From assembly GCA_035708085.1 (NCBI GenBank), contig DASSTE010000055.1:1975-65974 (forward strand): a stretch of 64,000 nt of DNA. Direction: 5' to 3'. The notes beneath the pieces were generated by a model. That model searched no databases. It was not told where the DNA came from and saw only the letters and a program-made list of their open reading frames with translations. Each line of letters starts with the position of its first letter. Positions within the stretch are counted from its first letter, which is position 1. Made by a program: the position numbers and the translations under genes. Source of the DNA: Gammaproteobacteria bacterium (GTDB lineage: Bacteria > Pseudomonadota > Gammaproteobacteria > Natronospirales > DASSBR01). Positions 1 through 30,821 of the stretch are shown piece by piece.

Positions 1-2459
1 TGCTCCAGAATCGCTACAGCCGGATCGAGTTTCGCCGCGCGCCGCGCCGGCAGGTAGCATGCGACGACGGTAATGACCGACAGTGCTACAGCCACTCCAG
101 CGAGCGTCACTGGGTCGAACGGCGCAACGTTGAAGAGCTGCGACGAAATCGAGTATCCGAGTACCACCGCGAGAAGCAGGCCGACACACAAGCCGATCGC
201 CAGCATCTTCAGGCCGTCCCGAATGATCAACCACAACAAATCACCAGGCAGCGCGCCCAGCGCCAGGCGTACGCCGCACTCGGTCACACGCTGACCGACG
301 ACGTAGCTCAATACGCTGTACACGCCGACCGCCGCGAGCACCAGCCCGAGGCATGCAAACACCAGCACCAGCGCCATGACGGCTTCGCGCTCTGCCAATG
401 ATCGCGCGAGCGTGTCGTGCATCGTGGAGAAGTTGCTGATCGATACCAGCGGATTGATGTTGTTGACGACCTGCTTGACAGGCTTGATCAACGTTTCCGG
501 TGGCACCCGACTTTTGACGACAAGGCTGATTCCTGAAGAAGGATACTGGGCGCTGTCGAGATAAAACATGCCGCGCGCCGGCGCGTCCGCCAATGAGCCA
601 CTGTGAATCGTGGCGACCTCGCCGATAATTCTAAAATGCACGCGCTTATGATTTTGATCTTTAATCCAGCCAAACGTAATTTGGCGCCCGATCGGACTTT
701 CCCCGGGGAACCACTTGTCCGCCAGCTTTTGGTCAATGATCGCCACCGGCCGGCTCTTCGATGTATCCTGTAAACCGAACGTACGTCCGCGCAACAGCGG
801 AATGTTCAACGCGGCAAAAAATCCGGCGCTAACGGTTTCGGCATTCCCTACCGGTGCTTTTGCGTCAGTCACCGACACTCGCCCAGGAATGGTATAGCCG
901 CCGGTATCCGGCGGATTTTTGATCGGCACGTTCGATACCAGCGCAGCATGCCCGACGCCCGGAATCCGGCGGATGCCATTCAGCAATTGTTGATAATAGT
1001 GAGCCCGAGCCGCGCTATCGGGCTGGTTCTTTGACGGCGGAATCAAAATGTCCGCCGTCAGCACGTTATTCGTACTAAAACCGGGGTCGACCGCCTGCAG
1101 TCGCGCGAGGCTATGCACCAGCAAACCGGCGCCACCCAAAAGCGCCGCCGCGAGCGCGATTTCTGCGACAACCAAGGCGCTCCTCGTCCGCTTCGCGCCA
1201 CGGCTGCCGCCGACGGCCCGCCCTCCCGATTGCAACAGCATTTGCGGATCGTTACGCGACAACTGGCGAATCGGCAGCACGCTGGTCACGATCGCGACCA
1301 GCAACACCATCCCGAGCGCGAACAGGCCGACGCGCCAGTCCGGCGTCAGGGTAAATACCCCAAGCCGCGCCCCAAGGCCGGCATTCTGAATGAACGTGAG
1401 ACTAAACCAACCCAAGGCCACGCCCGCCAGCGCGCCGGGCACGGCGAGACACAAGCCCTCGACGAACATTTGCCGGATCAGCGCCCAACGGCTCGCACCC
1501 AGGGCGGTTCGCATCGCGATTTCGTGCGTGCGCCCGAGGATACGCGCAAGCAGAAGATTGGCGACGTTGACGCAAGCCATCAGCAGCACCAGCAGCACGA
1601 AGCCCTGCAAAATCAGCAGCAGCGGCGTGCGGCCGCCCAACAGCACGTCGCGGTATGGCCGCACTTTGAAGCCCCAATCCTTTTGCTTGTACCAATTCCC
1701 TATCAGCGGAATCACTTTTTTGATGATGCTGGAGCGAACCCGGGCCAACTGGGCGCGCGCCTGCGCGATGCTGGCGCCCGGCTTCAGCCGCGCAATGGCG
1801 CGCTGGTTGTCCCAGCCGCAGGTCCGGCACTGGTTCGTCCCCAGAGGCGGGAAATAGAACGGGGTCCAGAGGCTGACGCGGTTGTCCGGAAAGGCAAAAC
1901 CTTTCGGCAGCACGCCTATTACGCGATACCGTTCGCCATCAAGCTTGATGGATCGACCTACAACGTCGCGGTCGCCACCGAAAGTGCGCTGCCAGAATGC
2001 GTAACTCAATATCGCGACTTTGTTTCGGCCTTTCTCATCGTTGGCGGCATCGAATGCGCGGCCGATCACGGGCTTTACCCGCAACACATCGAATAGAGTG
2101 GCGCGGGTTTTGAGCGTAGTCACCCGCTGCGTGCGGCCGTTAAGCGTCAGGTTATGGTCCTCTTCGGCATAGAGAGCGCTCGATTCGAAGACACTCGTCC
2201 CCTTTCTCGCATCCGTAAAACTGTTGATTGACACGCCGGTATAAGGCTCGCCGATCGCCGGTACGCTCTCGTTGATCGCGACCAGTTGCTGCGGCTGAGA
2301 ATACGGCAACGGCTTCAGCAGATAGCCGTTCAGCACGCTGAACACCGCCGTGTTGGCGCCGATGCCGAGCGCAAGTGTGACAATAGCTGCAACCGCAAAG
2401 CCAGGCTTGGCAGCTAATTGCCGCAGACCGAAACGTAGATCGTTCAGAAAACCGCTCAT
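1..2459 (-). CDS. ADOP-type duplicated MacB/FtsX ABC permease, paralog 9 of the array (3' end truncated by the window edge)
   Basis: Absent from the ORF track because it has no stop inside the window. My own reverse-strand translation: ATG at 2459 gives MSGFLNDLRFGLRQLAAKPGFAVAAIVTLALGIGANTAVF. The same frame holds at 1601 (FVLLVLLMACVNVANLLLARILGRTHEIAMR), at 722-540 (ADKWFPGESPIGRQITFGWIKDQ...GMFYLDSAQYP, no stops) and at 60-2 (ACYLPARRAAKLDPAVAILE plus a partial Q codon). All segments are collinear with the complete paralogs. I did not translate every codon. Confidence 0.8.
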   Translation of the reverse strand, partial: MSGFLNDLRFGLRQLAAKPGFAVAAIVTLALGIGANTAVFSVLNGYLLKPLPYSQPQQLVAINESVPAIGEPYTGVSINSFTDARKGTSVFESSALYAEEDHNLTLNGRTQRVTTLKTRATLFDVLRVKPVIGRAFDAANDEKGRNKVAILSYAFWQRTFGGDRDVVGRSIKLDGERYRVIGVLPKGFAFPDNRVSLWTPFYFPPLGTNQCRTCGWDNQRAIARLKPGASIAQARAQLARVRSSIIKKVIPLIGNWYKQKDWGFKVRPYRDVLLGGRTPLLLILQGFVLLVLLMACVNVANLLLARILGRTHEIAMRTALGASRWALIRQMFVEGLCLAVPGALAGVALGWFSLTFIQNAGLGARLGVFTLTPDWRVGLFALGMVLLVAIVTSVLPIRQLSRNDPQMLLQSGGRAVGGSRGAKRTRSALVVAEIALAAALLGGAGLLVHSLARLQAVDPGFSTNNVLTADILIPPSKNQPDSAARAHYYQQLLNGIRRIPGVGHAALVSNVPIKNPPDTGGYTIPGRVSVTDAKAPVGNAETVSAGFFAALNIPLLRGRTFGLQDTSKSRPVAIIDQKLADKWFPGESPIGRQITFGWIKDQNHKRVHFRIIGEVATIHSGSLADAPARGMFYLDSAQYPSSGISLVVKSRVPPETLIKPVKQVVNNINPLVSISNFSTMHDTLARSLAEREAVMALVLVFACLGLVLAAVGVYSVLSYVVGQRVTECGVRLALGALPGDLLWLIIRDGLKMLAIGLCVGLLLAVVLGYSISSQLFNVAPFDPVTLAGVAVALSVITVVACYLPARRAAKLDPAVAILE

Positions 2460-2477
2460 CGAGTTCCCCGGTTTCAG

Positions 2478-4883
2478 TTATTGCTCCAACATCGCCACGG
2501 ACGGATCGAGCTTCGACGCCCGCCGCGCCGGCAGATAACAGGCGGCAATTGTAATAATTGATAACGCGACAACCACACCTGCCAGCGTCAGCGGATCGAA
2601 CGGCGCCACATTGAAAAGCTGTGACGAAATTGCATAGCCCAGCACCACCGCGAGCCCAAGGCCGATGCACAAACCGATCGCCAGCATCCGCAGCCCGTCG
2701 CGGATGATCAGCCACAAGAGGTCGGCCGGCAGGGCTCCGAGCGCCAGCCGCACACCGCACTCCGTAACGCGCTGGTTCACGACGTAATTCAGCACGCCGT
2801 ACACACCGACTGCGGCGAGTGCCAGCCCGATGCAGGCGAATACGAGTACGAGCATCATCAGCGCTTCACGCTCGGTAAGCGATTGCGCGAGCACGTCGGC
2901 CATAGATATGAAATGGGAAATCGATGCGTTCGGGCTGAGATCCCGAACGACCTGCTTGAGCGGTTTTACCAGACGGTACGGCGGCATGCTGGTCTTGACC
3001 ACCAAATGCATGTCGCCAAACGCGTTTTGCGCGGCATTCAAATAGTACGTTCCCCGCTGTGGCGGACTATCGAGCGAGGTGGCGTAAACGGTTCCCACTT
3101 CGCCGATGATCGTGTATCGCGTTGGATCACCCCCAAGCGTAATCTGGTGCCCGATCGGACTGGAATCGGGAAACCATTGGTCCGCCAGTTTTTTATCTAC
3201 GACGACCATTGGCCGGGAATCGCCTGGCGCGAACACCCGTCCACGCAGCAATGGAATTCCCAGCGTTCCAAAGTAACCCTCCGACGCGATAACCATATTG
3301 CCCAGCGGCTTGTGCGGGCCCATCGGAGACTCACCGGGCACCGTGTATGCATTACCGAGCGGCGGCCATTCAATCGGCACGGCGTTTACTACGCCCGCGC
3401 TTTCGACACCGGGTAGCGCCCGCACGCGGCGCAGGAGCTCGTCATAGTATTGATCGCGCGCATTTGCGTTCACGATTTCCGCCGTCAACACCCGCGCGGC
3501 ATCGAAACCGGGATCAGCCGACTGCAAGCGAAGGAAACTGTTCACCAGCAATCCGGTACCGCCCAGTAAGGCGGCAGCGAGCGCGATTTCGGCCACAACC
3601 AAGGCACCGCGGATGCGTCTCGCTCCACGACCGCCGCGAATTGACCGCCCGCCCTCCTGCAACAAGCCCTGCAGATCGCGGCGTGAAAGTTGTCGGATCG
3701 GCAATGCGCTGATGATGACAGCCACCAGCACGACTACGATAAGGGCGAACAGCCCAACCCGCCAATCCGGTGTCAACGTAAACAGACCGAGCCGCGCGCC
3801 AAATCCGATATTCTGAATAAAGCTCAGTCCCAACCATCCCAACGCGACGCCGGCCAAGCCGCCGGGGATAGTCAGGCAAAACGCTTCAACGAATACCTGC
3901 CGCACAAGTCTCATTAGACTTGCGCCCAAGGCGGCGCGCATTGCGATCTCGTGCGTGCGGCCGAGAATACGTGCGAGAAGCAAATTCGCGACATTGACAC
4001 ACGTCATGAGTAACAACAGCAGCACGAAGCCTTGCAAAATAAAGAGCAATGTCGCGCGATCGCCGAGCAATTTGCCTCGATAAGACCGCGCGCGAAGATG
4101 CCAGCCGGTTTTCTGCACCATCCGGTTAAACCATGCCGGTTCGGCCGCTACGATCCGCGAAGTGATCTGATGCAACTGCGCACGTGCAGCGTTGAGATCA
4201 GCGCCGGGCTTCAATCGTGCGATTAGTTGCTGGTTGTGCTCGCAGGTCCGGCACTTGTGCAACAGTTGAGGTGGGAAATGGAACGGAACCCAGAGTCCGA
4301 CACTTGAGTCGGGAAATGCGAAGTGCCGCGGCATTACGGCGATCACGCGGTACGGCTCGCCATACAGCTTGATGGTACGACCGATTGCATCGCGATTGCC
4401 GCCAAAAACCGTTTGCCACAGGCCATAGCTCAGCACCGCCACATGGTCCCGCCCCCCCTGGTCATTAAGGTCGCCAAACACCTGTCCGAGATAGGGTTTG
4501 ACACGCAAAACGTCAAACAAGTCAGCGCGCGCACGAACGGCGGGAACCAGTTCTGTTTGACCGTTGATTGTCAGGTTAAAAGCCGTCTCCTTGTATAGTG
4601 CGGCGTCGGCCAGTACCGTTGCGTCTTTCTTGATGTCGAGATAATTCATCGCCGACACGCCGACGTAGGGCTGGTGCGCATTTGGGAAGCTTTCGTTGAT
4701 CGCAATCAGTTGTTGCGATTGAGGGTACGGCAACGGCTTTAACAGATAGCCGTTCAACACGCTGAACACAGCCGTGTTCGCGCCGATCCCGAGCGCCAGC
4801 GTGACAATTGCCGCGGCGGCAAAGCCAGGCTTGGCCGCTAGCTGGCGCAGACCGAAACGTACGTCATGCAAAAATCCGTTCAT
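2478..4883 (-). CDS. ADOP-type duplicated MacB/FtsX ABC permease, paralog 8
   Basis: 801 aa ORF. N-terminal hallmark MNGFLHDVRFGLRQLAAKPGFAAAAIVTLALGIGANTAVFSVLNGYLLKPLPYP. Central FtsX block CVNVANLLLARILGRTHEIAMRAALGA. C-terminal FtsX block NYVVNQRVTECGVRLALGA...ARRASKLDP. Two large intervening periplasmic-type domains. Confidence 0.93.
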   Translation of the reverse strand: MNGFLHDVRFGLRQLAAKPGFAAAAIVTLALGIGANTAVFSVLNGYLLKPLPYPQSQQLIAINESFPNAHQPYVGVSAMNYLDIKKDATVLADAALYKETAFNLTINGQTELVPAVRARADLFDVLRVKPYLGQVFGDLNDQGGRDHVAVLSYGLWQTVFGGNRDAIGRTIKLYGEPYRVIAVMPRHFAFPDSSVGLWVPFHFPPQLLHKCRTCEHNQQLIARLKPGADLNAARAQLHQITSRIVAAEPAWFNRMVQKTGWHLRARSYRGKLLGDRATLLFILQGFVLLLLLMTCVNVANLLLARILGRTHEIAMRAALGASLMRLVRQVFVEAFCLTIPGGLAGVALGWLGLSFIQNIGFGARLGLFTLTPDWRVGLFALIVVVLVAVIISALPIRQLSRRDLQGLLQEGGRSIRGGRGARRIRGALVVAEIALAAALLGGTGLLVNSFLRLQSADPGFDAARVLTAEIVNANARDQYYDELLRRVRALPGVESAGVVNAVPIEWPPLGNAYTVPGESPMGPHKPLGNMVIASEGYFGTLGIPLLRGRVFAPGDSRPMVVVDKKLADQWFPDSSPIGHQITLGGDPTRYTIIGEVGTVYATSLDSPPQRGTYYLNAAQNAFGDMHLVVKTSMPPYRLVKPLKQVVRDLSPNASISHFISMADVLAQSLTEREALMMLVLVFACIGLALAAVGVYGVLNYVVNQRVTECGVRLALGALPADLLWLIIRDGLRMLAIGLCIGLGLAVVLGYAISSQLFNVAPFDPLTLAGVVVALSIITIAACYLPARRASKLDPSVAMLEQ

Positions 4884-4896
4884 GCCAGCGCCCTCC

Positions 4897-7314
4897 TCAT
4901 TGCTCCATCATCGCCACTGCCGGATCGAGCTTTGCCGCACGCCGCGCCGGCAACCAACACGCCGCCAGCGTGATGGCGCAAAGCACGACCGCGCTGCCGG
5001 CCAACGTCACCGGATCAAACGGCGCTACGCCGAACAACTGCGCGTACATCATGTAGCCGAACAGCACCGCGAGACCGAGGCCAAGCACCAACCCGACCGC
5101 CAACAGTCGCAGTCCGCCTTTCAATATCAGCCACGACAGATCTTCCGGCAGCGCGCCCAAAGCAAGCCGCACGCCACATTCAGCGCGACGCTGGCTGACG
5201 GCATAGCTCATTACGCCGTACATGCCGACGATGGCGAGCGCCAGCGCGATGGCTCCGAAGGCGAGGACCAGCAGCATCGTGGCGTGGCGATCCTGCAGCC
5301 GGTCGGCCAGTATCTGGTGCATGGTTTTGAAGTTCGTGACAGACACGAGTGGGTCGATATTGCCGACCAGTTTGGTCAACGGGCGAATCAACGCCTGCGG
5401 CGGAATGGTTGTCCTGATTATCAGATTTAAGCCAGGGCGCCAGACACCTTGTGATACCGGCAAGTAAATCGTTTCCATGGAAGGTTCGTCGGCCAAGCTG
5501 GTTTTGAGCGTCGGTACGACGCCTATAATTCGATATTTGGAGCCGCCACCGACAAGATATTGGCCGACCGGGTTCGTGTCGGAAAAGTACTTGTTGGCAA
5601 GCATTTGATCAATAACAACGACCGGCTCGCTATCGGCAGTGTCTTGCGGCCCGAAAGCGCGGCCTCTCAACAACGGCACGCCCAGCGTTTTGAAGTAGCC
5701 GCTACTGACAATGGACATCCAGGCAAAAGGCGGCGGTGAAATCGAACGGCCGGCGATCCCGTAACCGCCGTTGGTGCCGTAACGAAACGGCAACTGCGTT
5801 GTCACTGCCGCCGCGCTGGCACCAGGCAATGCACGCACGCGCTTGATCAGGTCGTTGTAGAAACTGGCCAAGGCTTTGGTTCCCTCGTGGTCGCCGGCCG
5901 GCACTACGACACTCGCGGTCAATACGTTATCCGGGTTGAAGCCGGGGCTTATCGATTGCAATTTAATAAAGCTGTGTATCAGCAGTCCCGACCCCGCCAG
6001 CAGAGCAGTCGCGAGCGCCAGTTCCACCGTGACCAGCGCATTGCGCGTCCGCCGCGCGCCGCGCCCACCGCCTGTTGCGCGACTACCTTCTTGCAGAACC
6101 GTCTGTAAATCAGTTCGGCTGAAATGGCGGATCGGCAAGAGGCTCACGGCCAGCGCGACCAGAATGACAGCTGCGATAGCAAACAGCGCGACCCGCCAAT
6201 CAGGCGTGATGCTGAACAAACCGCTTTCAGCGCCCCAGCCGAGCTGCCGGATGAACCGAAGACTCCACCACGCCAGCCCCACGCCTATGGCGCCGCCCGG
6301 AATAGCGAGGCACAAGCCTTCGATCAACAATTGGCGCGCCAGCTTCCCGCGCGTGGCGCCGAGTGCGCTGCGCATCGCCATCTCGTGCGTACGCCCGAGG
6401 ATGCGGGCGAGCAGGAGATTGGCAACGTTCACACAGGTAATCAGCAGAACCAGCAATACTGCCGCTTGCAGCAGTAACAGCAGCGACGGCCTTCCAGATA
6501 CTAGTTGTGCGTGCCAGGGTTGCAGCCACCAGTCGATGTTGTACTTTTTGGTTCTCGCGCGCATCGTTGCGCTGACGCGGTTAACCGTCTGCAAGACCGT
6601 GTCGAGCTGTGTCCCCGCCGCCTCAATGCTGACACCCGGTTTAAGCCGCCCGATGATCTTCAGTTTGTTATCGCCGCGCTGGCTTTCGGTTTTGTCCTCG
6701 GCGGTAAATACCAGTGGCACGAATAGCTGGTTTGGCTCGCCTTGAAACACGAAGTTCCTCGGCATTACGCCCAGCACTGTATAGGGCTTGCCGTCGAATC
6801 TAAGCGTGTGCCCAACCACATTCGGATCGCCACCCAGCTTGTGCTGCCAGAACGGATAAGACAGAACGACGACTTGTCCCCGTCCCGGTTGCTGGCTTTC
6901 CTTACTGAACGTGCGCCCCAGCAACGGCTGAACTTGCAGCACGTCGAACAGTGAAGCCGTGGTTCTGACGACTGGAATAGCCTGCGCCATGCCGGCTCGC
7001 GTGAGGTTCAGCGAGTCCCAGTTGACCGCGGCGATGGCCGAGAAATCGGATGCGCGATTCACCATGCTCAGGTAGTTCGGTACCGAGATCGAGGCGTAAC
7101 GGATATTTGCTTTCGCCTGATCCTCGTTGATCTGCACCAGTCGGTCGCTGTGCGGATATGGCAGCGGTTTCAGCAGATAGCCGTTCAGCACGCTGAACAC
7201 CGCAGTGTTCGCGCCGATGCCGAGCGCAAGCGTCAGGATCGCGGCGGCCGCGAAGCCGGGTTTGGCGGCAAGCTGGCGCATGCCGAAACGCAGATCTTTT
7301 AAGAAGCCGTTCAT
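4897..7314 (-). CDS. ADOP-type duplicated MacB/FtsX ABC permease, paralog 7
   Basis: 805 aa ORF with the same architecture and motifs (MNGFLKDLRFGMRQLAAKPGF..., CVNVANLLLARILGRTHEMAMRSALGA, SYAVSQRRAECGVRLALGA). A 13-nt gap separates it from the next gene. Confidence 0.93.
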   Translation of the reverse strand: MNGFLKDLRFGMRQLAAKPGFAAAAILTLALGIGANTAVFSVLNGYLLKPLPYPHSDRLVQINEDQAKANIRYASISVPNYLSMVNRASDFSAIAAVNWDSLNLTRAGMAQAIPVVRTTASLFDVLQVQPLLGRTFSKESQQPGRGQVVVLSYPFWQHKLGGDPNVVGHTLRFDGKPYTVLGVMPRNFVFQGEPNQLFVPLVFTAEDKTESQRGDNKLKIIGRLKPGVSIEAAGTQLDTVLQTVNRVSATMRARTKKYNIDWWLQPWHAQLVSGRPSLLLLLQAAVLLVLLITCVNVANLLLARILGRTHEMAMRSALGATRGKLARQLLIEGLCLAIPGGAIGVGLAWWSLRFIRQLGWGAESGLFSITPDWRVALFAIAAVILVALAVSLLPIRHFSRTDLQTVLQEGSRATGGGRGARRTRNALVTVELALATALLAGSGLLIHSFIKLQSISPGFNPDNVLTASVVVPAGDHEGTKALASFYNDLIKRVRALPGASAAAVTTQLPFRYGTNGGYGIAGRSISPPPFAWMSIVSSGYFKTLGVPLLRGRAFGPQDTADSEPVVVIDQMLANKYFSDTNPVGQYLVGGGSKYRIIGVVPTLKTSLADEPSMETIYLPVSQGVWRPGLNLIIRTTIPPQALIRPLTKLVGNIDPLVSVTNFKTMHQILADRLQDRHATMLLVLAFGAIALALAIVGMYGVMSYAVSQRRAECGVRLALGALPEDLSWLILKGGLRLLAVGLVLGLGLAVLFGYMMYAQLFGVAPFDPVTLAGSAVVLCAITLAACWLPARRAAKLDPAVAMMEQ

Positions 7315-7327
7315 GCGTTTTCTCCCT

Positions 7328-9778: not shown

Positions 9779-9789
9779 CGTTGTTCCTC

Positions 9790-12225: not shown

Positions 12226-12232
12226 AATTCTT

Positions 12233-14677: not shown

Positions 14678-14688
14678 CTCCTACCCCT

Positions 14689-17151: not shown

Positions 17152-17163
17152 GCCCTACCCCCT

Positions 17164-19617
17164 CTACTGCTCCATCATCGCTATGGCTGGGTCGAGCTTT
17201 GCCGCGCGTCGCGCCGGCAGATAACACGCGGCCAGCGTGATGAAGCACAGCACGATGGCACTGCCAATCAGCGTCAGCGGATCAAACGGTACAACCCCGA
17301 ACAACTGCGACGAAATCAGGAAGCCGCATAACACGGCGAGGCCAAGGCCGAGAACAAGGCCGACCGCAAGCAGCTTCAAACCATCCTTCAATATCAACCA
17401 TTGCAAATCGCCCGGCAGCGCGCCAAACGCCAAACGAACGCCGCATTCGGCGCGCCGCTGTCCCACGGCGTAACTCATCACGGCATACACGCCGACAATC
17501 GCAAGCGCCAACGCAATCCCACCAAACGCGAGCAGCAAAGTCATCGTTGTCTGGTTATCGTTCAGCGAATCCAACAATTGCGCGTGCATGGTGTGGATGT
17601 CGGCAACGGCGACATTCGGCGCTATCGCGGCCAGCAGGTTTTTTACCGGCTTGATGAGCGCAGCTGGTGGCAGCTTGGTGTGGATGACAAGATACATATC
17701 GGGCGTCACACTGTATTTGCCGATGTCGATGTAAACGGCGGCCGACAATTTGGGCTGCGACAATCTCGTGTATTTGACCGGCGGCACAACGCCGACAATG
17801 GTGTAGATCTGTTTTGCGCCATAGTCGATCTTTTGCCCGATCGGGTTCACACCGCGAAAATACTTTTTGACCACGCGGGCATCGACGATCGCATGCATCT
17901 TGCCCGCATCGCGTTCATCGAAGCGTCGCCCGCGTAAAATCGGGATGCCGAGCGTTTTGAAATAGCCTGGGCTGATAAAATCCTGAATAGCCCCCGGCGA
18001 CTCGCCCGAAGGCTGCGGTGGCCGGCCGGGGATGGTGAAGCCGTTGAAAATTGCCATATTGCTCATCGGCACGGAAGCGGTAATCCCGGATTGCCAAACG
18101 CCAGGCAGTCCATCCACGCGCTTCACCACGTGGTTGTAAAACTGGCTCATCGCTTTGTCGTCCAAATAATCCTTGGGCGACAACAGAAGCTGCGCGATCA
18201 ATACATGGTCCTTGCGAAAACCGGGATCGACGGCTTCAAGATTCATAAAGCTGTGCAGCACCAGGCCGGCGATCGCAAGCAAGCCGGTCGCGAGCGCCAG
18301 TTCGGCAATAACGAGCGTATTGCGGACGCGCTTTGCGCCTCGCCCCGCGGTGCTGCGGCTACCCTCCTGCAAAGCAATTTGCAGATCAGTTTTGGCGAGT
18401 TGGCAGATCGGTAAAACGCTAATCAAGGCCGCGGTGACCAGCGCCGCGCCAAGTGCAAATAACCCGACGCGCCAGTCAAGCGCGATGTCGAATATGCTGC
18501 TACCAACGCCGAGAGCTGAGCCCGCCAGAAAGTGCATGCCGAACCAGGCGAGGCCGAAGCCGATCAAGCCACCGGGCACTGTCAGGCACAACGCCTCGCC
18601 AAGCAGTTGTCGCGCCAGCGCGCCCCGGGTCGCGCCAAGCGTGCTGCGGATCGCGATTTCATGGCCGCGCCCGAGAATGCGCGACAGCAACAGGTTGGCA
18701 ACGTTGACGCAGGTGATCAGCAAAATCAGTAACACCGCGCCTTCCAGCAGCCATAAGGTCGCTGGACGGTTGCCGAGCAATCCCTGCCGGTACGATTGGG
18801 CGCGCATCGAAAACCCCATGCTCTTTAGCAGTTTCCGGTTGTACATGAGGTTGCCCACTTTGATGGGGAAATTATTGTCGGTCCATGTCTGAACCGCTTG
18901 CCGTACTTGCCGTTGCGCCGTCGCGATGCTGACGCCGGGTTTGAGCCAGCCAATAAATCGAGTATCGAGTGCCGATAGAAACCGCGTCGGATCGAAAGTT
19001 TTGGGAACGATCGGTTGCGGTAACCATATCGAGATGTCGTGGTCCGGGAACGCGAAGCCGCGCGGCATTACGCCGACGATTCGATAATCCTCGCTTTCAA
19101 TATTGACGGCCTTGCCGATGATGTTGGGGTCTGCGCCGAACGTAGTGCGCCAGAGCGAATAACTGATGACTACAACCTGGTCGCTGCCAGGCTTCATGTC
19201 GGCTTTGGTGAAGGTATGCCCGAGCATGGGCTGCACGCCGAGAACGCGAAACAGCGACGCCGTAGTGATCAGCCCGCCGACGCGCTGCGCGCGTCTGGCG
19301 GCGTTCAGATTGAAATAGTCGCGATGGTAAACGGCACCAGCGGCAAAGGCCTTGGTGTGCCTTTGAACGATTTGATACATCGGCATCGAGATACCGGAAT
19401 CACCGCTGCTAAATTTTGGAAGCTCCGTGTTAAGTTGCGCCAACCGGCCGGCGTGCGGGTACGGTAGCGGCTTGAACAGATAGCCGCTCAGAACGCTGAA
19501 CACCGCCGTATTGGCGCCGATGCCAAGCGCCAGCGTGAGGATGGCCGCGGCGGCAAATCCAGGCTTGGCTGTAAGTTGATGAATGCCAAAACGCAGGTCT
19601 GTGAGAAAGCCGTTCAT
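17164..19617 (-). CDS. ADOP-type duplicated MacB/FtsX ABC permease, paralog 2 (subfamily A)
   Basis: 817 aa ORF. By eye it is closest to paralog 6 along its whole length. Confidence 0.93.
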   Translation of the reverse strand: MNGFLTDLRFGIHQLTAKPGFAAAAILTLALGIGANTAVFSVLSGYLFKPLPYPHAGRLAQLNTELPKFSSGDSGISMPMYQIVQRHTKAFAAGAVYHRDYFNLNAARRAQRVGGLITTASLFRVLGVQPMLGHTFTKADMKPGSDQVVVISYSLWRTTFGADPNIIGKAVNIESEDYRIVGVMPRGFAFPDHDISIWLPQPIVPKTFDPTRFLSALDTRFIGWLKPGVSIATAQRQVRQAVQTWTDNNFPIKVGNLMYNRKLLKSMGFSMRAQSYRQGLLGNRPATLWLLEGAVLLILLITCVNVANLLLSRILGRGHEIAIRSTLGATRGALARQLLGEALCLTVPGGLIGFGLAWFGMHFLAGSALGVGSSIFDIALDWRVGLFALGAALVTAALISVLPICQLAKTDLQIALQEGSRSTAGRGAKRVRNTLVIAELALATGLLAIAGLVLHSFMNLEAVDPGFRKDHVLIAQLLLSPKDYLDDKAMSQFYNHVVKRVDGLPGVWQSGITASVPMSNMAIFNGFTIPGRPPQPSGESPGAIQDFISPGYFKTLGIPILRGRRFDERDAGKMHAIVDARVVKKYFRGVNPIGQKIDYGAKQIYTIVGVVPPVKYTRLSQPKLSAAVYIDIGKYSVTPDMYLVIHTKLPPAALIKPVKNLLAAIAPNVAVADIHTMHAQLLDSLNDNQTTMTLLLAFGGIALALAIVGVYAVMSYAVGQRRAECGVRLAFGALPGDLQWLILKDGLKLLAVGLVLGLGLAVLCGFLISSQLFGVVPFDPLTLIGSAIVLCFITLAACYLPARRAAKLDPAIAMMEQ

Positions 19618-19664
19618 GTTGTATCTCTAGTCCCCTTAACGTCCGGGAGCGGGAAATGGAGAAG

Positions 19665-22106
19665 TCACTGCTCCACGATCGCTACGGCCGGGTCGAGCTT
19701 CGCCGCACGACGTGCCGGTAGATAACACGCGAGCAGCGTGATGACAGCCATGACGATGGCGGTACCGGCCAACGTCAGCGGGTCGAACGGCGCGACACTG
19801 AACAGGCGCGCCGAGAGCAGGTACCCCATCACGACAGCGAGGGCCAGGCCCACCACCAGGCCGACCGCGAGCAGCTTGAGCCCGTCCTTCAACACCAGCC
19901 ACAGCAGGTCCTCGGGCAGCGCGCCCAGGGCCAGGCGCACTCCGCACTCGGTGGTACGCTGACCGACGGCGTAGCTCATGACGCCGTAAACACCGATGAT
20001 GGCGAGGGCCAGCGCGATTGCGCCAAATGCGAGGATCAGAATCATCAGCGACTGGCGACCTTGCAAGTTGTGCGCGATCAGGTCCTGCACCGATTCAAAG
20101 TCATTGGCGGTGGCGCCGGGAGCAACCTGCGCTACTGTGGCCTTGATCGCCTTGACCTGCGAATAAGGCGGCAGCGTGGTCTGGACCACGAGCGCAAGCG
20201 CCCCTCCCCGCTGCGCAAGCATCGCCAGCCATTGGGCCGACTGGCTCACCGGGAAATAGGCGGTGCCCATGTTGTTCGCGCGACTCAGTTGCTCTGCGCG
20301 CATCGACGAAACAACACCGACGATCGTGGTTTTCGTATCCCCCATTTTCAGGGTGCGCCCGACAGGATTTTTGCCGGGATACGCCTGTTGTGCCATGACG
20401 TCATCGATCACCATGACAGGCTGGCTGTGCGCAGTATCCTGCGCATTGAACAGCCGCCCGCGCAGCAGCCGCAAGCCAAGCGTATTGAAATACCCGGTAT
20501 CGGTAATATTCCACCAGGCGAATGGCGCATACTTCGGCCGCCCCGGGACTTCATAGCTGCCGTTGACCCCGTAGCTGAGCGGCAACTGCAACGCCACGCC
20601 CGCGCTTTCCACCCCCGGCACGGCATGGATTTGATCGAGCAATTGATGGTAAAAACTCGCCGCGGCCTCGCCCGACACCTGCGGCGGCGGCGCAACTTTG
20701 GCCGTCAAGACATGGCTTGTGCGAAAACCGGGATTGATGCCGCTTAACTCAATGAAACTGTGCATCAGCAGCCCGGCGCCGGCGAGAAGCGCGGCCGCCA
20801 GAGCCATTTCAGCCACAGCCAGAACATTGCGAACGTGCCTGGCGCCGCGCCCACCGCCGATGCTGCGGCCGCCTTCCTGCAAGATGCCTTGCAGGTTGCC
20901 CCGACTGAAATGTCTGATGGGCAAGAGGCTGATTACAACCGCCACCAGGAGTACAGCCCCAAACGTAAATACACCGACGCGCCAATCGGGGTTTATGGTG
21001 AAAATCTGCGATCCTCCGAGGCCCAGATTTTGTACGAAGCCGAGCGCCCACCAGCCGAGTGCCATACCGGCGATGCCGCCGGGCACCGCCAGGCAAAGGC
21101 CTTCGATCAACAGTTGGCGTGCAAGGACTCCGCGAGTCGCGCCCAGCACGCTGCGCATGGCGAGTTCATGCGTGCGGCCGAGAATGCGTGCGAGCAAGAG
21201 GTTGGCGACGTTGACGCAGGCGATCAAAAGAACCATCAGTACGGCCGCCTGCAGCAAGAACAGGGTCGAGTCTTCGTCGCCGACGAGCTTGTCGCGATAC
21301 GGACGTGCGTTCCAGTCAAGGCCGACCTGGTCCTGCGACTGTTTCATTTCCGAACTGGTATCGATAACCTGATCGAGAACCGCCGCTAGTCGTGCATTCG
21401 CCTGCTGCAGGCTCACGCCCGGCTTCAGTCGCGCAATCACCGGCGAATTCTGGTTGCGCCGGAATGCTTCCGATTTCATCTTCGCGGTCATCACGTACGG
21501 CGTCCACAGCCGCGCCAAACCGAAACCGATATCGACATTCATGGTTCGTGGCATCACACCGATGATCGTGTACGGCTCCCCATTCAACTTGATGGACTGG
21601 CCGATCACGCTCCGGTCGGCGCCGAAGGTCTGTTGCCAGAAACTGTAGCTCAACACGACAACATGACCGCGCCCGGGCTGCTGCGCGGTACTGTCAAAGG
21701 TGCGCCCAAGCAGCGGTTTGACGCCGAGCACATCGAATAACGACGCCGTCGCCATCGACGCATGTACCCGCTGCGTCTGACCCCCCGCCTGCACGGCATA
21801 ACTTCGCCACGTCCACGCGCCGATCGACGAGAACACGTCATGAGTGTTTTGTTTGATGCTCAGATAGTTCGGCAGCGATAACGGCGCATGCTGAATCCCC
21901 GGCTTGATCTGATGCTCGCTGACGTCTACCAGTTGCTCACTGTGCGGGTACGGCAGCGGTTTCAGCAGATAGCCGTTGAGCACACTGAACACGGCTGTAT
22001 TGGCGCCAATGCCGAGCGCCAGCGTCAGGATCGCCGCAGCCGCGAAGCCGGGCTTCGATGCCAGCTGGCGCAGGCTGAACCGCAGGTCCGTTAACAGGCC
22101 GTTCAT
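19665..22106 (-). CDS. ADOP-type duplicated MacB/FtsX ABC permease, paralog 1 (first after the ATPase)
   Basis: 813 aa ORF (MNGLLTDLRFSLRQLASKPGF...). Its N-terminal periplasmic region most resembles paralog 7. It starts 18 nt after the ATPase stop. Confidence 0.93.
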   Translation of the reverse strand: MNGLLTDLRFSLRQLASKPGFAAAAILTLALGIGANTAVFSVLNGYLLKPLPYPHSEQLVDVSEHQIKPGIQHAPLSLPNYLSIKQNTHDVFSSIGAWTWRSYAVQAGGQTQRVHASMATASLFDVLGVKPLLGRTFDSTAQQPGRGHVVVLSYSFWQQTFGADRSVIGQSIKLNGEPYTIIGVMPRTMNVDIGFGLARLWTPYVMTAKMKSEAFRRNQNSPVIARLKPGVSLQQANARLAAVLDQVIDTSSEMKQSQDQVGLDWNARPYRDKLVGDEDSTLFLLQAAVLMVLLIACVNVANLLLARILGRTHELAMRSVLGATRGVLARQLLIEGLCLAVPGGIAGMALGWWALGFVQNLGLGGSQIFTINPDWRVGVFTFGAVLLVAVVISLLPIRHFSRGNLQGILQEGGRSIGGGRGARHVRNVLAVAEMALAAALLAGAGLLMHSFIELSGINPGFRTSHVLTAKVAPPPQVSGEAAASFYHQLLDQIHAVPGVESAGVALQLPLSYGVNGSYEVPGRPKYAPFAWWNITDTGYFNTLGLRLLRGRLFNAQDTAHSQPVMVIDDVMAQQAYPGKNPVGRTLKMGDTKTTIVGVVSSMRAEQLSRANNMGTAYFPVSQSAQWLAMLAQRGGALALVVQTTLPPYSQVKAIKATVAQVAPGATANDFESVQDLIAHNLQGRQSLMILILAFGAIALALAIIGVYGVMSYAVGQRTTECGVRLALGALPEDLLWLVLKDGLKLLAVGLVVGLALAVVMGYLLSARLFSVAPFDPLTLAGTAIVMAVITLLACYLPARRAAKLDPAVAIVEQ

Positions 22107-22124
22107 GTTATGGACTCCCTGTGC

Positions 22125-22862
22125 TTATTCGGCAACTGGCGAGGCTGCCGGAGCCGGATTGGCGATGGTGATGTCCTCGTCGACGATCTGGCCGTCGAAG
22201 AGCTGGATCGTGCGTGCGGCGCGGGTCGCGTAACGCGGATCATGCGTGACCATGCAAATCGTTGCGCCGGCATGGTGCAACTCGTCCATCAGTTCCATTA
22301 CCGCCTCGCCACTGGCCGAATCCAGATTACCGGTCGGCTCGTCGGCGAGCAGAATCGAGGGCTCGCCAACCAGTGCGCGAGCCACGGCAACGCGCTGCTG
22401 CTGACCGCCGGAAAGCTGCGACGGGTAATGGTTGACGCGGTGCGCCATGCCGACCCGTTCCAGCACCGTATTCACCTTTTCGCGCCGTTCTTCCTTGCTC
22501 GTGCCGCCGCGATACACCAGCGGCAGCTCGACGTTCTCATACACGCTTAAGTCGCCGATCAGGTTGAACGTCTGGAAAATGAAACCGATCTCGCGATTAC
22601 GGATGTGCGCCCGGTCGGCATTGTCGAGTTCCTCAACCGCCGTGCCGTTCAACTGATAAGTGCCGCTGGTCGGTGTCGACAGCAGGCCGAGGATCGACAT
22701 CAGCGAGGTCTTGCCGCAGCCGGAGGGGCCGAGGATGGCGACGTATTCGCCACGGTCGATGTCGAAGCTGATGCCGTTCAGCGCGTACGTCTCGACTTCG
22801 TCGGTGGCGTAGATCTTTTTCAGGTTGTCGATTCTGATCAGCTGCATTTCATCGTCTTTCAT
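22125..22862 (-). CDS. ABC transporter ATP-binding protein, MacB/LolD/FtsE-type stand-alone NBD
   Basis: Walker A GPSGCGKTS, signature LSGGQQQR, Walker B ILLADEPTGNLD, H-loop VTHD. I prefer ATG 22862 (MKDDEMQLIRI...) because GGAG lies 6 nt upstream. The ORF-track start at 22889 would overlap the adaptor gene by 8 nt. Confidence 0.92.
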   Translation of the reverse strand: MKDDEMQLIRIDNLKKIYATDEVETYALNGISFDIDRGEYVAILGPSGCGKTSLMSILGLLSTPTSGTYQLNGTAVEELDNADRAHIRNREIGFIFQTFNLIGDLSVYENVELPLVYRGGTSKEERREKVNTVLERVGMAHRVNHYPSQLSGGQQQRVAVARALVGEPSILLADEPTGNLDSASGEAVMELMDELHHAGATICMVTHDPRYATRAARTIQLFDGQIVDEDITIANPAPAASPVAE

Positions 22863-22881
22863 CGTTTGCTCCGGTTTGCGA

Positions 22882-24153
22882 TTACCCATGACTCAACTCG
22901 ATTCGGTCGTACTGGCTCCATTGGGAGGTATCCGACACAATGACCTTGTCGCCCGGCTTGAGCCCGGCGACGACCTGTACGGCGTTGGCCGACGTGCGGC
23001 CCAGTTCAACTTTGGTGCGCGTCGCCAGATCGCTGCCCGGCACCAGCCGGAACACGCTCAGCGTGTCGCCCGCCTGCACGCCTGCCGGGCGATCCATGTA
23101 GAGCACGTTATCGAGCTTCGCGAGGACGATTTCGCCCTGCACGTCCAAGCCGCTGCGCAGATCCTTCGGCGGATCGCCGACCGGCGCGACATCGATTTCG
23201 ACGGTGCCGTTCTCCACCGTCGGATTGACGCGAATGACCTTGCCGACGAAAGTGCTGTTGGCGCCGCCGAACGCGGTCAGCATCACGTGCTGGCCGATCG
23301 CGATTGCGCCCGCCTGCGATTCGGCGACCTGCAGCTTAGCCATCAGGTTGTTCTGCTGCGCGATGCGCGCGATGTCCGCGCCAATCGCCAGGTGTTGGCC
23401 GTCCTGCACCGCGACTTGCGTCACGATGCCGGTCATGCCGGCTTTCACCTGCAGGTTGTCGAGGTCGCGCTCACGCGCGGCGAGGTCGGCCTTGAGCTGC
23501 GCGACTTCCGCCTGCTTCGCGTTGACCTGCGCATCGAGGCTCGCCTTGAACTGCTGAATACGCTGCTTGTCGGATGCCACCTTCTGCTTGAGTTGTTCCG
23601 CCTTCGCGACAGTCTGCCGGTAATCCAATTCGGAGATAATGTGTTCCTTGACGACCTGCGCCTGAGCCTTTTTCTGGAACTGCGCGACCTGGTAGTTGCT
23701 CTCGTCCTGCGCCAGCGTGTTTTCGAGATCGAGCAACTGGCTTTGCAGTTGCGCCTTCAGCGATGCCAGATCCGCCTTGCCCGTTGCTACCTTCGTCTTC
23801 GCCTGCGCCACCGCCTGCACGACCTCCGGGTTGTGCATGACGACCAGAACGCTGTCCGGCTTGACATGATCGCCCGGCCGCACCAGGCGCTTCTCGACCA
23901 CCCCGGCGGCGGGCGCAGTGACCCATTGAATAACGCGCGGCGTCAAAACACCCGACGCCTGCACGGTAATCGTCAGCGGACCCTGCTTGACGGTGCTGAC
24001 CAGCACCGACGAGCGCGGCACGCTGGGCGCGGCAGGCTTAAGAAATGCGACCAGCACGATCGCGGCAATAACGACTGCGGCGGCGGAACCGATCAGCGCG
24101 AAGCGCTTGCGCTGACGTTTGCGGCGATGTTCGGCGGAACGGGGCTTGTCCAT
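22882..24153 (-). CDS. HlyD/MacA-family periplasmic adaptor (membrane fusion protein)
   Basis: N-terminal basic stretch plus TM (RKRFALIGSAAAVVIAAIVLVAF), then a long coiled-coil (QAKTKVATGKADLASLKAQLQSQLLDLEN...) and beta-barrel-like C-terminal domains. The ORF-track start (TTG 24189) is replaced by ATG 24153 (MDKPRSAEH...), which has AGAGGA 5 nt upstream and lies downstream of the sigma-54 promoter. Confidence 0.9.
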   Translation of the reverse strand: MDKPRSAEHRRKRQRKRFALIGSAAAVVIAAIVLVAFLKPAAPSVPRSSVLVSTVKQGPLTITVQASGVLTPRVIQWVTAPAAGVVEKRLVRPGDHVKPDSVLVVMHNPEVVQAVAQAKTKVATGKADLASLKAQLQSQLLDLENTLAQDESNYQVAQFQKKAQAQVVKEHIISELDYRQTVAKAEQLKQKVASDKQRIQQFKASLDAQVNAKQAEVAQLKADLAARERDLDNLQVKAGMTGIVTQVAVQDGQHLAIGADIARIAQQNNLMAKLQVAESQAGAIAIGQHVMLTAFGGANSTFVGKVIRVNPTVENGTVEIDVAPVGDPPKDLRSGLDVQGEIVLAKLDNVLYMDRPAGVQAGDTLSVFRLVPGSDLATRTKVELGRTSANAVQVVAGLKPGDKVIVSDTSQWSQYDRIELSHG

Positions 24154-24189
24154 GAAATCCTCTGGTTGCGGGTTATACCGTATACGCAA

Positions 24190-24204
24190 GCAAAAACCAT
24201 GCCA
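24190..24204 (-). promoter_or_regulatory. sigma-54 (-24/-12) promoter P1 for the adaptor-ATPase-permease operon
   Basis: The minus strand reads TGGCAT-GGTTT-TTGC, with the invariant GG and GC at the canonical spacing. The predicted transcription start is near 24179, about 26 nt upstream of ATG 24153. An NtrC-type activator gene is adjacent. Confidence 0.75.
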
Positions 24205-24270: not shown

Positions 24271-24307
24271 TGTTCGATTATGGGACGGCGCGTCCCATAA
24301 TCGAACA
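24271..24307. promoter_or_regulatory. UAS1: 17-N3-17 perfect palindrome, candidate enhancer-binding-protein site for P1
   Basis: TGTTCGATTATGGGACG-CGC-CGTCCCATAATCGAACA on the minus strand. It lies 66 bp upstream of the TGGCAT of P1. It matches UAS2 at 32 of 37 positions. Confidence 0.7.
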
Positions 24308-24330: not shown

Positions 24331-24561
24331 TCACTCATAGCGGACTCGCCCATACGCCAGAAGCGAACTCAACTCGCCGCAACGGCGGGGCATTTTTCTA
24401 CGGCCGTCAGCACACGCAACGTTTTCGCGCCGATCCGTCGCCAAAACCACCACGTCAGGCAACTCGCAGCGTCGAGCTGCAAGCTCATTGCTGCAGGCGG
24501 CGAGCCCTTTTCTACGCGAGCCCCCAGTTTCGAGCGTAGGCACACGCAATAATCCGTTCAT
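24331..24561 (-). CDS. candidate small basic Cys-containing protein (76 aa), or the non-coding body of a sigma-54-dependent short transcript
   Basis: ATG at 24561 with GGAGA 7 nt upstream, about 56 nt downstream of the predicted P2 start. The peptide MNGLLRVPTLETGGSRRKGL... has 4 Cys, 13 Arg, no TM segment and no signal peptide. By my count 30 of 76 codons end in A/T (AGA x2, CGA x2, TTA), which is atypical for this genome, so coding status is uncertain. Confidence 0.3.
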   Translation of the reverse strand: MNGLLRVPTLETGGSRRKGLAACSNELAARRCELPDVVVLATDRRENVACADGRRKMPRRCGELSSLLAYGRVRYE

Positions 24562-24628
24562 GTCACTATCTCCGAATTACCGTCCAATACTGATCCACTT
24601 CAACAGCGGACCTCCTGCATTTACTCAA

Positions 24629-24643
24629 GCAAATACTGTGCCA
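24629..24643 (-). promoter_or_regulatory. sigma-54 (-24/-12) promoter P2, a duplicate of P1
   Basis: The minus strand reads TGGCAC-AGTAT-TTGC, a consensus -24/-12. From TGGCA onward, 19 of 24 positions match P1, including the downstream TTGxGTAxA. Confidence 0.75.
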
Positions 24644-24707: not shown

Positions 24708-24744
24708 TGTTCGATTCCGGGACGTCGCGTCCCGTAATCGAAGA
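24708..24744. promoter_or_regulatory. UAS2: 17-N3-17 near-perfect palindrome, candidate enhancer-binding-protein site for P2
   Basis: TCTTCGATTACGGGACG-CGA-CGTCCCGGAATCGAACA on the minus strand. It lies 64 bp upstream of the TGGCAC of P2. It sits 40-80 bp upstream of the divergent activator gene start. Confidence 0.7.
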
Positions 24745-30298: not shown

Positions 30299-30318
30299 CA
30301 CGGACGCACGCAAAGAGC

Positions 30319-30375
30319 TTGAATTTTCCGGCTGCGCCACTACAATAGTTAGCATGCTAACTTTTCGCATGCTAA
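30319..30375 (+). promoter_or_regulatory. putative sigma-70 promoter plus MarR operator
   Basis: TTGAAT (30319-30324), a 16-nt spacer, then TACAAT (30341-30346). This is followed by the perfect palindrome TTAGCATGCTAA (30349-30360) and a second half-copy GCATGCTAA (30367-30375), just before the marR-like start at 30379. Confidence 0.5.
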
Positions 30376-30378
30376 CAG

Positions 30379-30813: not shown

Positions 30814-30821
30814 AGGTATGA

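Follow-up and report, generated by a model that had tools for sequence, protein, structure and literature searches.

Several machines of the bacterial cell envelope are built on permeases of the MacB type (type VII) of ATP-binding cassette (ABC) systems. In the MacAB-TolC tripartite efflux pump of Escherichia coli (PDB 5NIK; reviewed in PMC5985334), the ATPase is fused to the N-terminus of the permease, which is encoded by one gene. In YbbAP-TesA (PDB 9GE6-9GE8), the permease YbbP is a fused type VII chain of ten transmembrane (TM) helices, arranged as 4+2+4 with two linker helices, that binds two copies of the separately encoded ATPase YbbA (PMC12646458). DarBCD is the darobactin exporter of Photorhabdus, encoded in a gene cluster of a peptide that is made by ribosomes and modified after translation (RiPP) (PMC8442675). 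LolCDE (PDB 7ARH and others) is a single essential system dedicated to lipoprotein extraction. Here we compare with these systems a locus of a gammaproteobacterial genome, a putative operon of one periplasmic adaptor gene, one ABC ATPase gene and nine genes of ADOP-type duplicated permeases (ADOP, acidobacterial duplicated orphan permease). The locus lies in a 64,000-nucleotide stretch of contig DASSTE010000055.1 (assembly GCA_035708085.1); this whole stretch is referred to below as the window.

ADOP permeases form the family TIGR03434, which was originally defined by the absence of adjacent ATPases ("orphan"); the original name also implies a restriction to Acidobacteria. A 42-kb island of Psychroflexus torquis (genomic island 43) carries 8-10 ADOP genes together with ATP-binding transporter genes; its function is unknown, and several of its ADOPs are abundant in the proteome (PMC3914696). 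Dozens of ADOP-type permeases per genome have been reported for Dyadobacter (PMC11573002). The literature that we searched contained no functional study, partner ATPase or mechanism for any ADOP.

Sharing of an ATPase is in itself an established principle for ABC importers and Mce systems. Group II energy-coupling factor (ECF) transporters likewise share one energising module. The shared, or "multitask", ATPases include MsmX, MsiK and MsmK of type I importers and MceG of Mce systems (PMC7658222, PMC4519317, PMC9947336).

In this work we argue that a single inducible operon in the window encodes an envelope machine of the MacAB-TolC kind (type VII ABC), in which a shared chassis would serve nine or more alternative permeases. 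We assign to this reading a probability of roughly 0.55. The idea of a shared chassis is supported by the conservation of the coupling helices, the first TM helix and both termini of the permeases, by low ratios of nonsynonymous to synonymous substitution rates (dN/dS), and by the presence of a single ATPase and a single adaptor. We infer that one motor and one adaptor serving many permeases is the best reading of the locus.

Eleven genes follow head to tail on the minus strand in positions 1-24153. The first encodes a periplasmic adaptor, i.e., a membrane-fusion protein, with an N-terminal membrane anchor (22882-24153; 423 aa), and the second encodes a stand-alone MacB/LolD-type ABC ATPase (22125-22862; 245 aa). 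The nine ADOP genes, designated P1 to P9, come next. They are P1 (19665-22106; 813 aa), P2 (17164-19617; 817 aa), P3 (14689-17151; 820 aa), P4 (12233-14677; 814 aa), P5 (9790-12225; 811 aa), P6 (7328-9778; 816 aa), P7 (4897-7314; 805 aa), P8 (2478-4883; 801 aa), and P9 (1-2459), of which 819 of 820 codons are inside the window. Only the last codon and the stop codon of P9 are missing at the window edge, and its full-length database copy (P0127) has 820 aa.

The intergenic gaps from the ATPase gene through P9 are 18, 47, 12, 11, 7, 11, 13, 13 and 18 nt. Every ADOP gene has its own start codon, most of the gaps contain a GGAG-like ribosome-binding site, and no in-frame stop was found in any of the eleven genes. 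A first-pass annotation of the window had listed these eleven genes with gaps of 7-47 nt, and all of them were recovered at the same positions on the minus strand; a check of the paralogues for interruptions, which it had proposed, found all nine to be intact. A scan of positions 1-20000 for sigma-70 promoters returned one site against 6.2 expected, and it lies on the strand opposite to the operon. Sites resembling terminators occur in the same region at about the background level (26 against 22.1 expected). The tight spacing and the lack of internal sigma-70 or terminator signals are consistent with, but do not prove, a single transcription unit that includes the adaptor, the ATPase and the nine ADOPs.

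The TIGR03434 profile has 803 positions and a curated cut-off of 622.3 bits. All nine proteins score 781.4-849.2 bits (P1 to P9: 812.6, 800.7, 783.2, 787.4, 794.9, 812.1, 849.2, 781.4 and 836 bits), and their matches cover the profile from position 1-2 to 800/803. Two MacB_PCD (PF12704) and two FtsX (PF02687) domains were found in each of P1, P5 and P9, the three proteins that were scanned with Pfam. Thus the earlier assignments, which were ADOP and MacB_PCD/FtsX for the permeases, MacB/LolD type for the ATPase and HlyD type for the adaptor, hold in the TIGR03434 and Pfam scans, and the sequence motifs quoted for the permeases agree with the alignment consensus. Neither part of the family name describes this locus. 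A MacB/LolD-type ATPase gene is located 18 nt upstream of P1, and the same is the case in Acidobacteriaceae and in most metagenome loci. The source organism and its closest relatives are metagenome-assembled genomes (MAGs) of Gammaproteobacteria. In view of these relatives and of the core genes around the locus, an acidobacterial origin of the window was rejected. The adjacent ATPase contradicts the term "orphan" and leaves the membership in ADOP, as defined by the hidden Markov model, intact.

Each ADOP has eight hydrophobic segments, with a cytoplasmic linker of about 30 residues between TM4 and TM5. An AlphaFold model of P1, built from 91 sequences (mean predicted local distance difference test, pLDDT, 85.3; predicted template modelling score, pTM, 0.75), contains 4+4 TM helices, two mixed alpha/beta periplasmic domains, and predicted short coupling helices at residues 312-320 (after TM2) and 718-726 (after TM6). 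In a Foldseek search the best full-length structural match of this model is E. coli YbbP (9GE6_A, E 2.7e-19), followed by MacB, Spr0695, LolE, BceB and HrtB; the probability is 1.00 for MacB, YbbP and LolE. By sequence, each ADOP half is closest to the MacB chains in PDB (1e-27). By profile matches and by the model, every ADOP consists of two MacB-type units fused into one complete pseudo-dimer. The predicted 4+4 fusion is direct, and this topology is absent among the solved structures that we retrieved.

The conservation of the paralogues differs strongly by region. The mean pairwise identity among the nine is 93% in TM1, 82% in the C-terminal helix, 80% in TM2, 80% in coupling helix 2, 79% in the N-terminal helix and 75% in coupling helix 1, versus 40% in periplasmic domain 1 and 38% in periplasmic domain 2. 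This is the pattern that the first-pass annotation had predicted, i.e., conserved TM and coupling helices (75-93%) and variable periplasmic domains (38-40%). The two coupling helices differ from one another, yet each is kept across the paralogues.

The ATPase has the Pfam domain ABC_tran with intact Walker A, Q-loop, LSGGQ, Walker B and H-loop motifs. Its best NCBIfam matches are DarD, the MacB nucleotide-binding domain (NBD) and LolD, none of which reaches its equivalog cut-off; its best PDB matches are 5XU1_A, the MacB NBD, LolD and YbbA. A phmmer scan of the open reading frames (ORFs) of at least 100 aa found no other ABC ATPase in the window. The adaptor contains HlyD_D23, HlyD_3 and Biotin_lipoyl domains and a hydrophobic N-terminus (FALIGSAAAVVIAAIVLVAFL). 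It scores 120.9 on TIGR01730 (cut-off 94.9), aligns over its full length but weakly to DarC and MacA, and is 100% identical to the database protein P0001 from a gammaproteobacterial soil MAG.

A TolC-family gene directly follows the P9 orthologue in four relatives, namely in the related genomes A (L001), B (L002) and C (L003) and in the Logan contigs L035 and L036. The product scores 257.8 on TIGR01844 (cut-off 225.15). Wherever the sequence of a relative extends past this gene, one to three more ADOP genes are present. Based on synteny, a TolC-family gene probably lies just beyond the window edge in our genome too. Since in the relatives both this gene and further ADOP genes come after the P9 orthologue, the array itself probably also continues past the edge.

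The locus shares with MacAB-TolC the MacB-type fold with four TM helices and a periplasmic core domain per unit, the coupling helices that lie between TM2 and TM3 of the MacB fold, a MacB/LolD-type NBD, a membrane-anchored adaptor, and a TolC-family channel in the clusters of its relatives. It differs from MacAB-TolC in the separate ATPase; in the fusion of two permease units into an 8-TM chain with two unlike periplasmic domains; in the number of permease genes, at least nine versus one; and in the predicted control by sigma-54 and a two-component system. On the MacB equivalog profile NF007826 (cut-off 966) the ATPase scores 242 bits and the ADOPs at most 122, and the adaptor is far under the MacA equivalog cut-off (61 versus 342 bits). 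Judging from the sequences, the system appears to work most like MacAB-TolC, yet it is not a MacB equivalog, because the ATPase is separate, the permease is fused and the scores are far below the cut-off.

Like YbbAP-TesA, the locus combines a separately encoded ATPase, which in YbbAP binds as a dimer (YbbA2:YbbP1), with a double MacB-type permease that is fused and pseudo-symmetric and has two coupling helices besides its two periplasmic domains; YbbA is a close PDB match of the window ATPase. However, YbbP has ten TM helices instead of eight and a structure-based identity to ADOP of only about 14%, and YbbAP has a single permease gene and works with a periplasmic hydrolase, without an adaptor or TolC. 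LolCDE resembles the ADOPs in that two unlike units, LolC and LolE, sit on one ATPase homodimer (LolD), which matches the asymmetric yet conserved pair of coupling helices in ADOP. Unlike the halves of an ADOP, LolC and LolE are separate chains, and the system has no adaptor or TolC.

DarBCD has the same list of three parts, namely a permease, a separate ATPase and an adaptor. With its 777 positions, the DarB NCBIfam profile is as long as a fused double permease; among NCBIfam profiles the window ATPase matches DarD best (249 bits), and DarC aligns over the whole adaptor. However, all three proteins are far under the equivalog cut-offs (DarD 249 versus 375, DarC 89 versus 450, DarB about 19-22 versus 700). 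DarBCD also has one permease and belongs to a RiPP cluster, whereas no radical-SAM or other maturation gene was found near the window operon.

The tandem ADOP clusters of Acidobacteriaceae and Psychroflexus are similar to the locus in that ADOP paralogues are combined with ATP-binding and other transporter genes, and a sigma-54-type promoter precedes the adaptor gene in Acidobacteriaceae. The lineage of the window differs from them in having one ATPase, at least nine ADOPs and a divergent two-component system, in placing the TolC gene inside the array (as seen in relatives), and in having an ADOP clade of its own, i.e., an independent expansion. MsmX, MsiK, MsmK and MceG provide the functional parallel, in that one ATPase serves several membrane modules of different specificity. 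They differ from the locus in being parts of importers with unrelated folds, the permeases of which are usually encoded at scattered loci. We know of no report of ATPase sharing for type VII (MacB-type) systems.

The putative regulatory genes are divergent from the operon. The first of them (24786-26153, plus strand) encodes a sigma-54-dependent response regulator with REC, AAA+ and HTH_8 parts (Pfam Response_reg, Sigma54_activat, AAA_lid_14 and HTH_8; domain E-values of 2.5e-68, 5.4e-21 and 3.4e-12), a GENGTGK Walker A motif, a GAFTDA loop and a DEIG motif. Close homologues of this regulator (E about 1e-150) adjoin the equivalent clusters of Acidobacteriaceae. The second gene (26137-27501, plus strand) encodes a sensor histidine kinase with a HATPase_c domain, the H-box HEINNSL and an AtoS-like C-terminal half; AtoS is its best NCBIfam match, below the AtoS cut-off. 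The kinase has two N-terminal TM helices with hydropathy peaks at residues 38 and 63. As only a few residues separate these helices, the kinase is predicted to have no periplasmic sensor domain. Its synteny is kept in the relatives.

The spacer of 632 nt between the operon and the regulator gene contains two predicted sigma-54 promoters on the operon strand, both of them exact matches. We searched for the consensus TGGCAY-N5-TTGCW (-24 GG / -12 GC) and found three exact matches in the window, while 0.17 are expected. The proximal promoter TGGCATGGTTTTTGCT (24189-24204, minus strand) starts 51 nt upstream of the adaptor ATG. Genomes A, C and D have it at -50/-51 and Oleiagrimonas citrea has it at -27; it is also present in contig L033. 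The distal promoter TGGCACAGTATTTGCT (24628-24643, minus strand) is likewise an exact match and was found in all four related lineages. In the Acidobacteriaceae loci TGGCAC-N5-GTGCW stands just before the adaptor gene. The third exact match, TGGCACGGCAATTGCT (13665-13680, minus strand, inside P4), was rejected as a promoter: it encodes a conserved LARQLL motif, and other paralogues have versions with two mismatches at the same place, which makes it a probable by-product of coding.

A 33-nt palindrome, TTCGATT..GGGAC......GTCCC..AATCGAA, is located upstream of each of the two promoters; two copies are present in the window and none occurred in 100 shuffles. The distal copy TTCGATTCCGGGACGTCGCGTCCCGTAATCGAA (24710-24742), about 70-100 nt upstream of the distal promoter, is a probable enhancer (upstream activating sequence, UAS) for the response regulator. 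The proximal copy TTCGATTATGGGACGGCGCGTCCCATAATCGAA (24273-24305) is a probable enhancer for the operon promoter, and its core recurs at the same distance from the adaptor ATG (about -152) in genomes A, C and D. The predicted elements include both the -24/-12 promoters and the upstream enhancers that are features of NtrBC-type regulation.

Downstream of the distal promoter there is a small ORF of uncertain status (24331-24561, minus strand; 76 aa, MNGLLRVPTLE...). Its ribosome-binding site and start (ATGAACGGATT, MNG[LF][LF]) are kept in four lineages, with lengths of 76, 76, 66 and 77 aa. The product is Arg-rich with several Cys, its dN/dS against genome A is 0.42, and its first codons are similar to those of the ADOPs (MNGFL). 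A small protein that evolves fast is one possibility; a leader peptide and the remnant of an ADOP 5' end are others. Two further candidates, a RiPP precursor comparable to darA and a known RNA element, were rejected in view of the dN/dS of 0.42, the lack of a maturation enzyme nearby and the absence of Rfam matches.

The nine paralogues are 46-76% identical in pairs. As the identity is only at this level, the array is old and diverged. Recent duplication and assembly artefact were rejected as its origin; in addition to the low identity, several paralogues have positional orthologues elsewhere. The gammaproteobacterial ADOPs form one clade apart from the acidobacterial arrays, so the expansion was lineage-specific.

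Comparison with genome A reveals a mosaic. The flanking proteins are 95-97% identical, the adaptor 96% and the ATPase 99%, with synonymous divergence (dS) of 0.26-0.57. P1 and P2 have 99% and 98% protein identity to genome A and dS of 0.08. Because this value is so low against 0.26-0.57 for the surrounding genes, including the adaptor and the ATPase, the sequences suggest a recent exchange of a two-gene cassette between lineages. The near-identity of P2 to genome A stops within the last 65 codons or so. In an alignment of P1-P2 (17164-22106) with locus L028 (12048-16990), nucleotide identity is 97-100% over most of P2.

The remaining copies have different histories. P3 has no close orthologue among the relatives examined, its best match elsewhere being 52% identical; colinearity with genome A is lost at 16983, about 170 nt into the gene, and regained at 15136, where about 450 nt of the gene remain. 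P4 shows background divergence from genome A (89% identity, dS 0.41, dN/dS 0.13). P5 has an orthologue in genome D only (84% identity, versus just 62% to genome A). P6 is 93% identical to genome B and 85% to genome A, with dN/dS of 0.05-0.10. The sole orthologue of P7 is in genome D (73%). P8 is a paralogue of P9 without an orthologue in the relatives, and is 64% identical to P9 and to the P9 orthologues. P9 itself is 82%, 76% and 75% identical to its orthologues in genomes A, B and C. For P6 and P9 dS is about 1.0. The breakpoints are located in the conserved TM-coding ends, a pattern that points to an exchange of entire permeases, or of the central parts of them, by recombination.

Orthologue pairs have an overall dN/dS of 0.05-0.16, and the range for the periplasmic domains is 0.03-0.23. 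Purifying selection thus maintains all seven copies for which an orthologue exists (all but P3 and P8), and the low values indicate that the periplasmic domains are functional and not drifting. No positive selection on the periplasmic domains was detected at the level of whole domains (dN/dS 0.03-0.23).

The closest ADOP relatives are from gammaproteobacterial MAGs, with 74-82% identity; the identity is 38% for the best Limisphaerales locus and 27-35% for acidobacterial loci. In genome A a kinase and a regulator gene are followed by the divergent adaptor, the ATPase, four ADOPs, a PF00144 hydrolase, three ADOPs, TolC and two more ADOPs. Genome C has four ADOPs before TolC, and the number is at least four to five in genome D and contig L033. 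The hydrolase of genome A (L001 3614-5074) is a 486-aa PF00144 serine hydrolase, similar to AmpH and class C beta-lactamases, encoded in this closest relative between the fourth and the fifth ADOP. It has no counterpart in the window operon and recalls the hydrolase partner of YbbAP-TesA.

The cultured bacterium O. citrea has an adaptor, an ATPase and at least four ADOP-like genes. The products of these genes have another N-terminus (MPIWLTEIW...) and are just under the ADOP cut-off (601 versus 622), and a 67-aa ORF (L032 11334-11537) stands between the adaptor and the ATPase genes. Acidobacteriaceae, including the cultured Occallatibacter savannae AB23, have an adaptor, an ATPase, 3-5 ADOPs, a second ATPase, a TolC-like gene, a sigma-54 regulator and a kinase. 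Their clusters end in the second, different ABC ATPase and the TolC-like protein, and then the regulator and the kinase follow. The TolC-like protein is long (663-688 aa) and has an N-terminal extension without a Pfam match (L008 12455-15147; L018 15108-17875). In the Acidobacteriaceae MAG loci L015, L024 and L025 the ADOP genes are split into many short ORFs. These could be pseudogenised arrays or, more likely, assembly frameshift errors, and the three loci were left out of the counts.

We also collected 80 soil-metagenome loci with the adaptor profile. An ADOP is present in 30 of the 31 loci with at least 3.5 kb of downstream sequence, and three or more ADOPs fill 15 of the 16 loci with at least 8.5 kb downstream. 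A homologue of the sigma-54 regulator was found upstream in 25 of the 35 loci with at least 2 kb of upstream sequence. The adaptor, the ATPase, several ADOPs, the TolC-family gene and the sigma-54 regulator are co-inherited across phyla. The architecture of an adaptor, an ATPase and multiple ADOPs is therefore very common in soil bacteria. The first-pass annotation knew of no description of such a stoichiometry. This part of the claim did not survive, since the layout occurs in Acidobacteriaceae, O. citrea and the metagenome loci, and a similar cluster was noted in Psychroflexus in 2014 (PMC3914696); the part that stands is that we found no functional characterisation of it.

Taken together, the data can be arranged into the following mechanism. 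The membrane histidine kinase, which lacks a periplasmic sensor domain, would phosphorylate the sigma-54-dependent response regulator. The regulator would bind the two palindromic enhancers and activate the two sigma-54 promoters, the proximal of which would drive the adaptor, the ATPase and the nine ADOP genes. Any single ADOP could dock a dimer of the lone ATPase on its two conserved coupling helices, and this complex would be joined by the single adaptor and a TolC-family channel. Mechanotransmission to the periplasmic domains would be driven by the binding and hydrolysis of ATP, and these domains would pick up substrates in the periplasm or in the inner membrane's outer leaflet and export them. 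In this scheme the permeases, at least nine in number, would act as alternative specificity modules on one chassis, and their repertoire would be reshuffled between strains by recombination within the conserved TM-coding ends. Our guess is that the substrates are diverse antimicrobial or amphiphilic compounds met in soil.

Several points weigh against this scheme. With a single ATPase gene and nine permease genes, whose products each need two ATPase copies, the stoichiometry would be strongly unbalanced unless the permeases compete for the ATPase or the rates of translation are very different. A second, different ATPase is present in many related clusters, thus one motor is not a universal rule. 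The adaptor must dock on periplasmic domains that are merely 38-40% identical between the paralogues. The sigma-54 loop of the regulator, GAFTDA, is one change away from the canonical GAFTGA. Finally, no TolC-family gene is present inside the window, where P9 reaches the edge, and a protein search with the TolC-like query of the relatives returned no homologue from the 76,733-nt source contig.

Among the other explanations, the one that fares best is a type VII ABC extractor or sensor. The ADOPs would pull lipids, lipoproteins or antimicrobial-target complexes from the inner membrane, or report flux to the kinase, and the extracted cargo would be hydrolysed or handed over as in YbbAP-TesA, LolCDE or BceAB. 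Such a role would fit the full-length structural match between the P1 model and YbbP (9GE6_A, E 2.7e-19) and a kinase without a periplasmic sensor domain. In this respect the window kinase resembles the intramembrane-sensing kinases that work with BceAB. Hydrolases do occur in this context, namely the PF00144 protein inside the array of genome A and a TesA-like thioesterase in the Psychroflexus cluster (PMC3914696), but the window and most of the relatives have none. Besides, the ADOPs have eight TM helices against ten in YbbP and BceB, and in both phyla the anchored adaptor is always the first gene and a TolC-family gene belongs to the cluster, which is a signature of a trans-envelope conduit. 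We consider an extractor or sensor to be doubtful.

It is likewise unlikely that the ADOPs are independent transporters standing beside one MacAB-like unit, so that only the first or a few of them use the ATPase and the adaptor of the operon and the others use unlinked ATPases or none. Conservation is high in all nine copies for both coupling helices as well as for the cytoplasmic helices at the N- and C-termini, the gaps are 7-47 nt without internal promoter or terminator signals, and multiple ADOPs follow one adaptor and one ATPase in 15 of the 16 informative metagenome loci. Independence would account for the imbalance of one ATPase gene to nine permease genes, for the second ATPase that is interspersed among the ADOPs in many related clusters, and for a family definition based on the lack of an adjacent ATPase; no further ABC ATPase, however, was found in the 64-kb window. 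The least probable possibility, that the distal genes mainly form a recombination reservoir of cassettes for rebuilding the expressed proximal permeases, as silent cassettes do in antigenic variation, would explain the mosaic dS against genome A (0.08 for P1-P2, 0.26-0.57 for the flanks, about 1.0 for P6 and P9), the replaced P3 with breakpoints in the conserved TM-coding ends, and the differences in copy number and order next to flanking and operon-head proteins of 95-99% identity, but we hold it to be very improbable, given that all copies are full-length without stops, each has its own start codon and most have a GGAG-like ribosome-binding site, the distal orthologues have dN/dS of 0.05-0.15 with the periplasmic domains included, and a comparable cluster encodes several ADOPs that are abundant in the proteome (PMC3914696).

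Within the preferred reading of one chassis with alternative permeases, a more specific picture can be offered tentatively. It is possible that the system is a combinatorial envelope pump, in which a constant ATPase dimer, adaptor ring and TolC-type channel are combined with any of 9-12 fused permeases, each having a periplasmic-domain pair of its own. A single sigma-54-induced operon would then cover many substrate specificities. The permeases would be a "library" for chemical defence that recombination in the conserved TM-coding ends rapidly edits from strain to strain. The kinase, having no sensor domain, may sense flux, with the activity of the transporter being its direct input.

Outside the locus the window consists of ordinary core chromosome, with gyrA, serC, aroA, cmk, rpsA, lapB, pyrG and eno. 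Two more efflux systems adjoin the locus (30318-38253), and this neighbourhood is syntenic in the relatives. One consists of an EmrA-like adaptor and a major facilitator superfamily (MFS) transporter (EmrAB-like; 30865-33434), beside which the relatives have a MarR-type regulator gene. The other is a resistance-nodulation-division (RND) adaptor with an AcrB-family pump (AcrAB-like; 33918-38253). A signalling cluster follows at 38333-49035. It includes a GGDEF-EAL protein (38333-40099), a KaiC-like double ATPase (40488-42029), a 507-aa protein with a YgjP-like metallopeptidase domain (42011-43534), and two large PAS/GAF hybrid histidine kinases (42773-45727 and 45889-49035).

The locus is a real, widespread and mechanistically suggestive variant of MacAB-TolC-type systems, although less singular than was first claimed. 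In soil bacteria, the ADOP-type duplicated permeases rank with the largest paralogue families that still await an explanation. The locus and its relatives offer a testable list of partners for them: a DarD/MacB-type ATPase, a membrane-fusion adaptor, a TolC-family channel and a sigma-54 two-component switch. Cultured carriers exist, namely O. savannae AB23 (L018) and O. citrea (L032). If one ATPase and one adaptor do serve many permeases, type VII ABC systems would have their first case of a shared motor, and bacteria a new route to broader specificity of efflux or extraction. The shuffling of permeases from strain to strain suggests selection by a changing chemical environment, and this bears on the intrinsic resistance of soil communities. 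ATPases of this class may, in addition, be the motor so far missing for the hundreds of "orphan" ADOPs in Acidobacteria and Bacteroidota.

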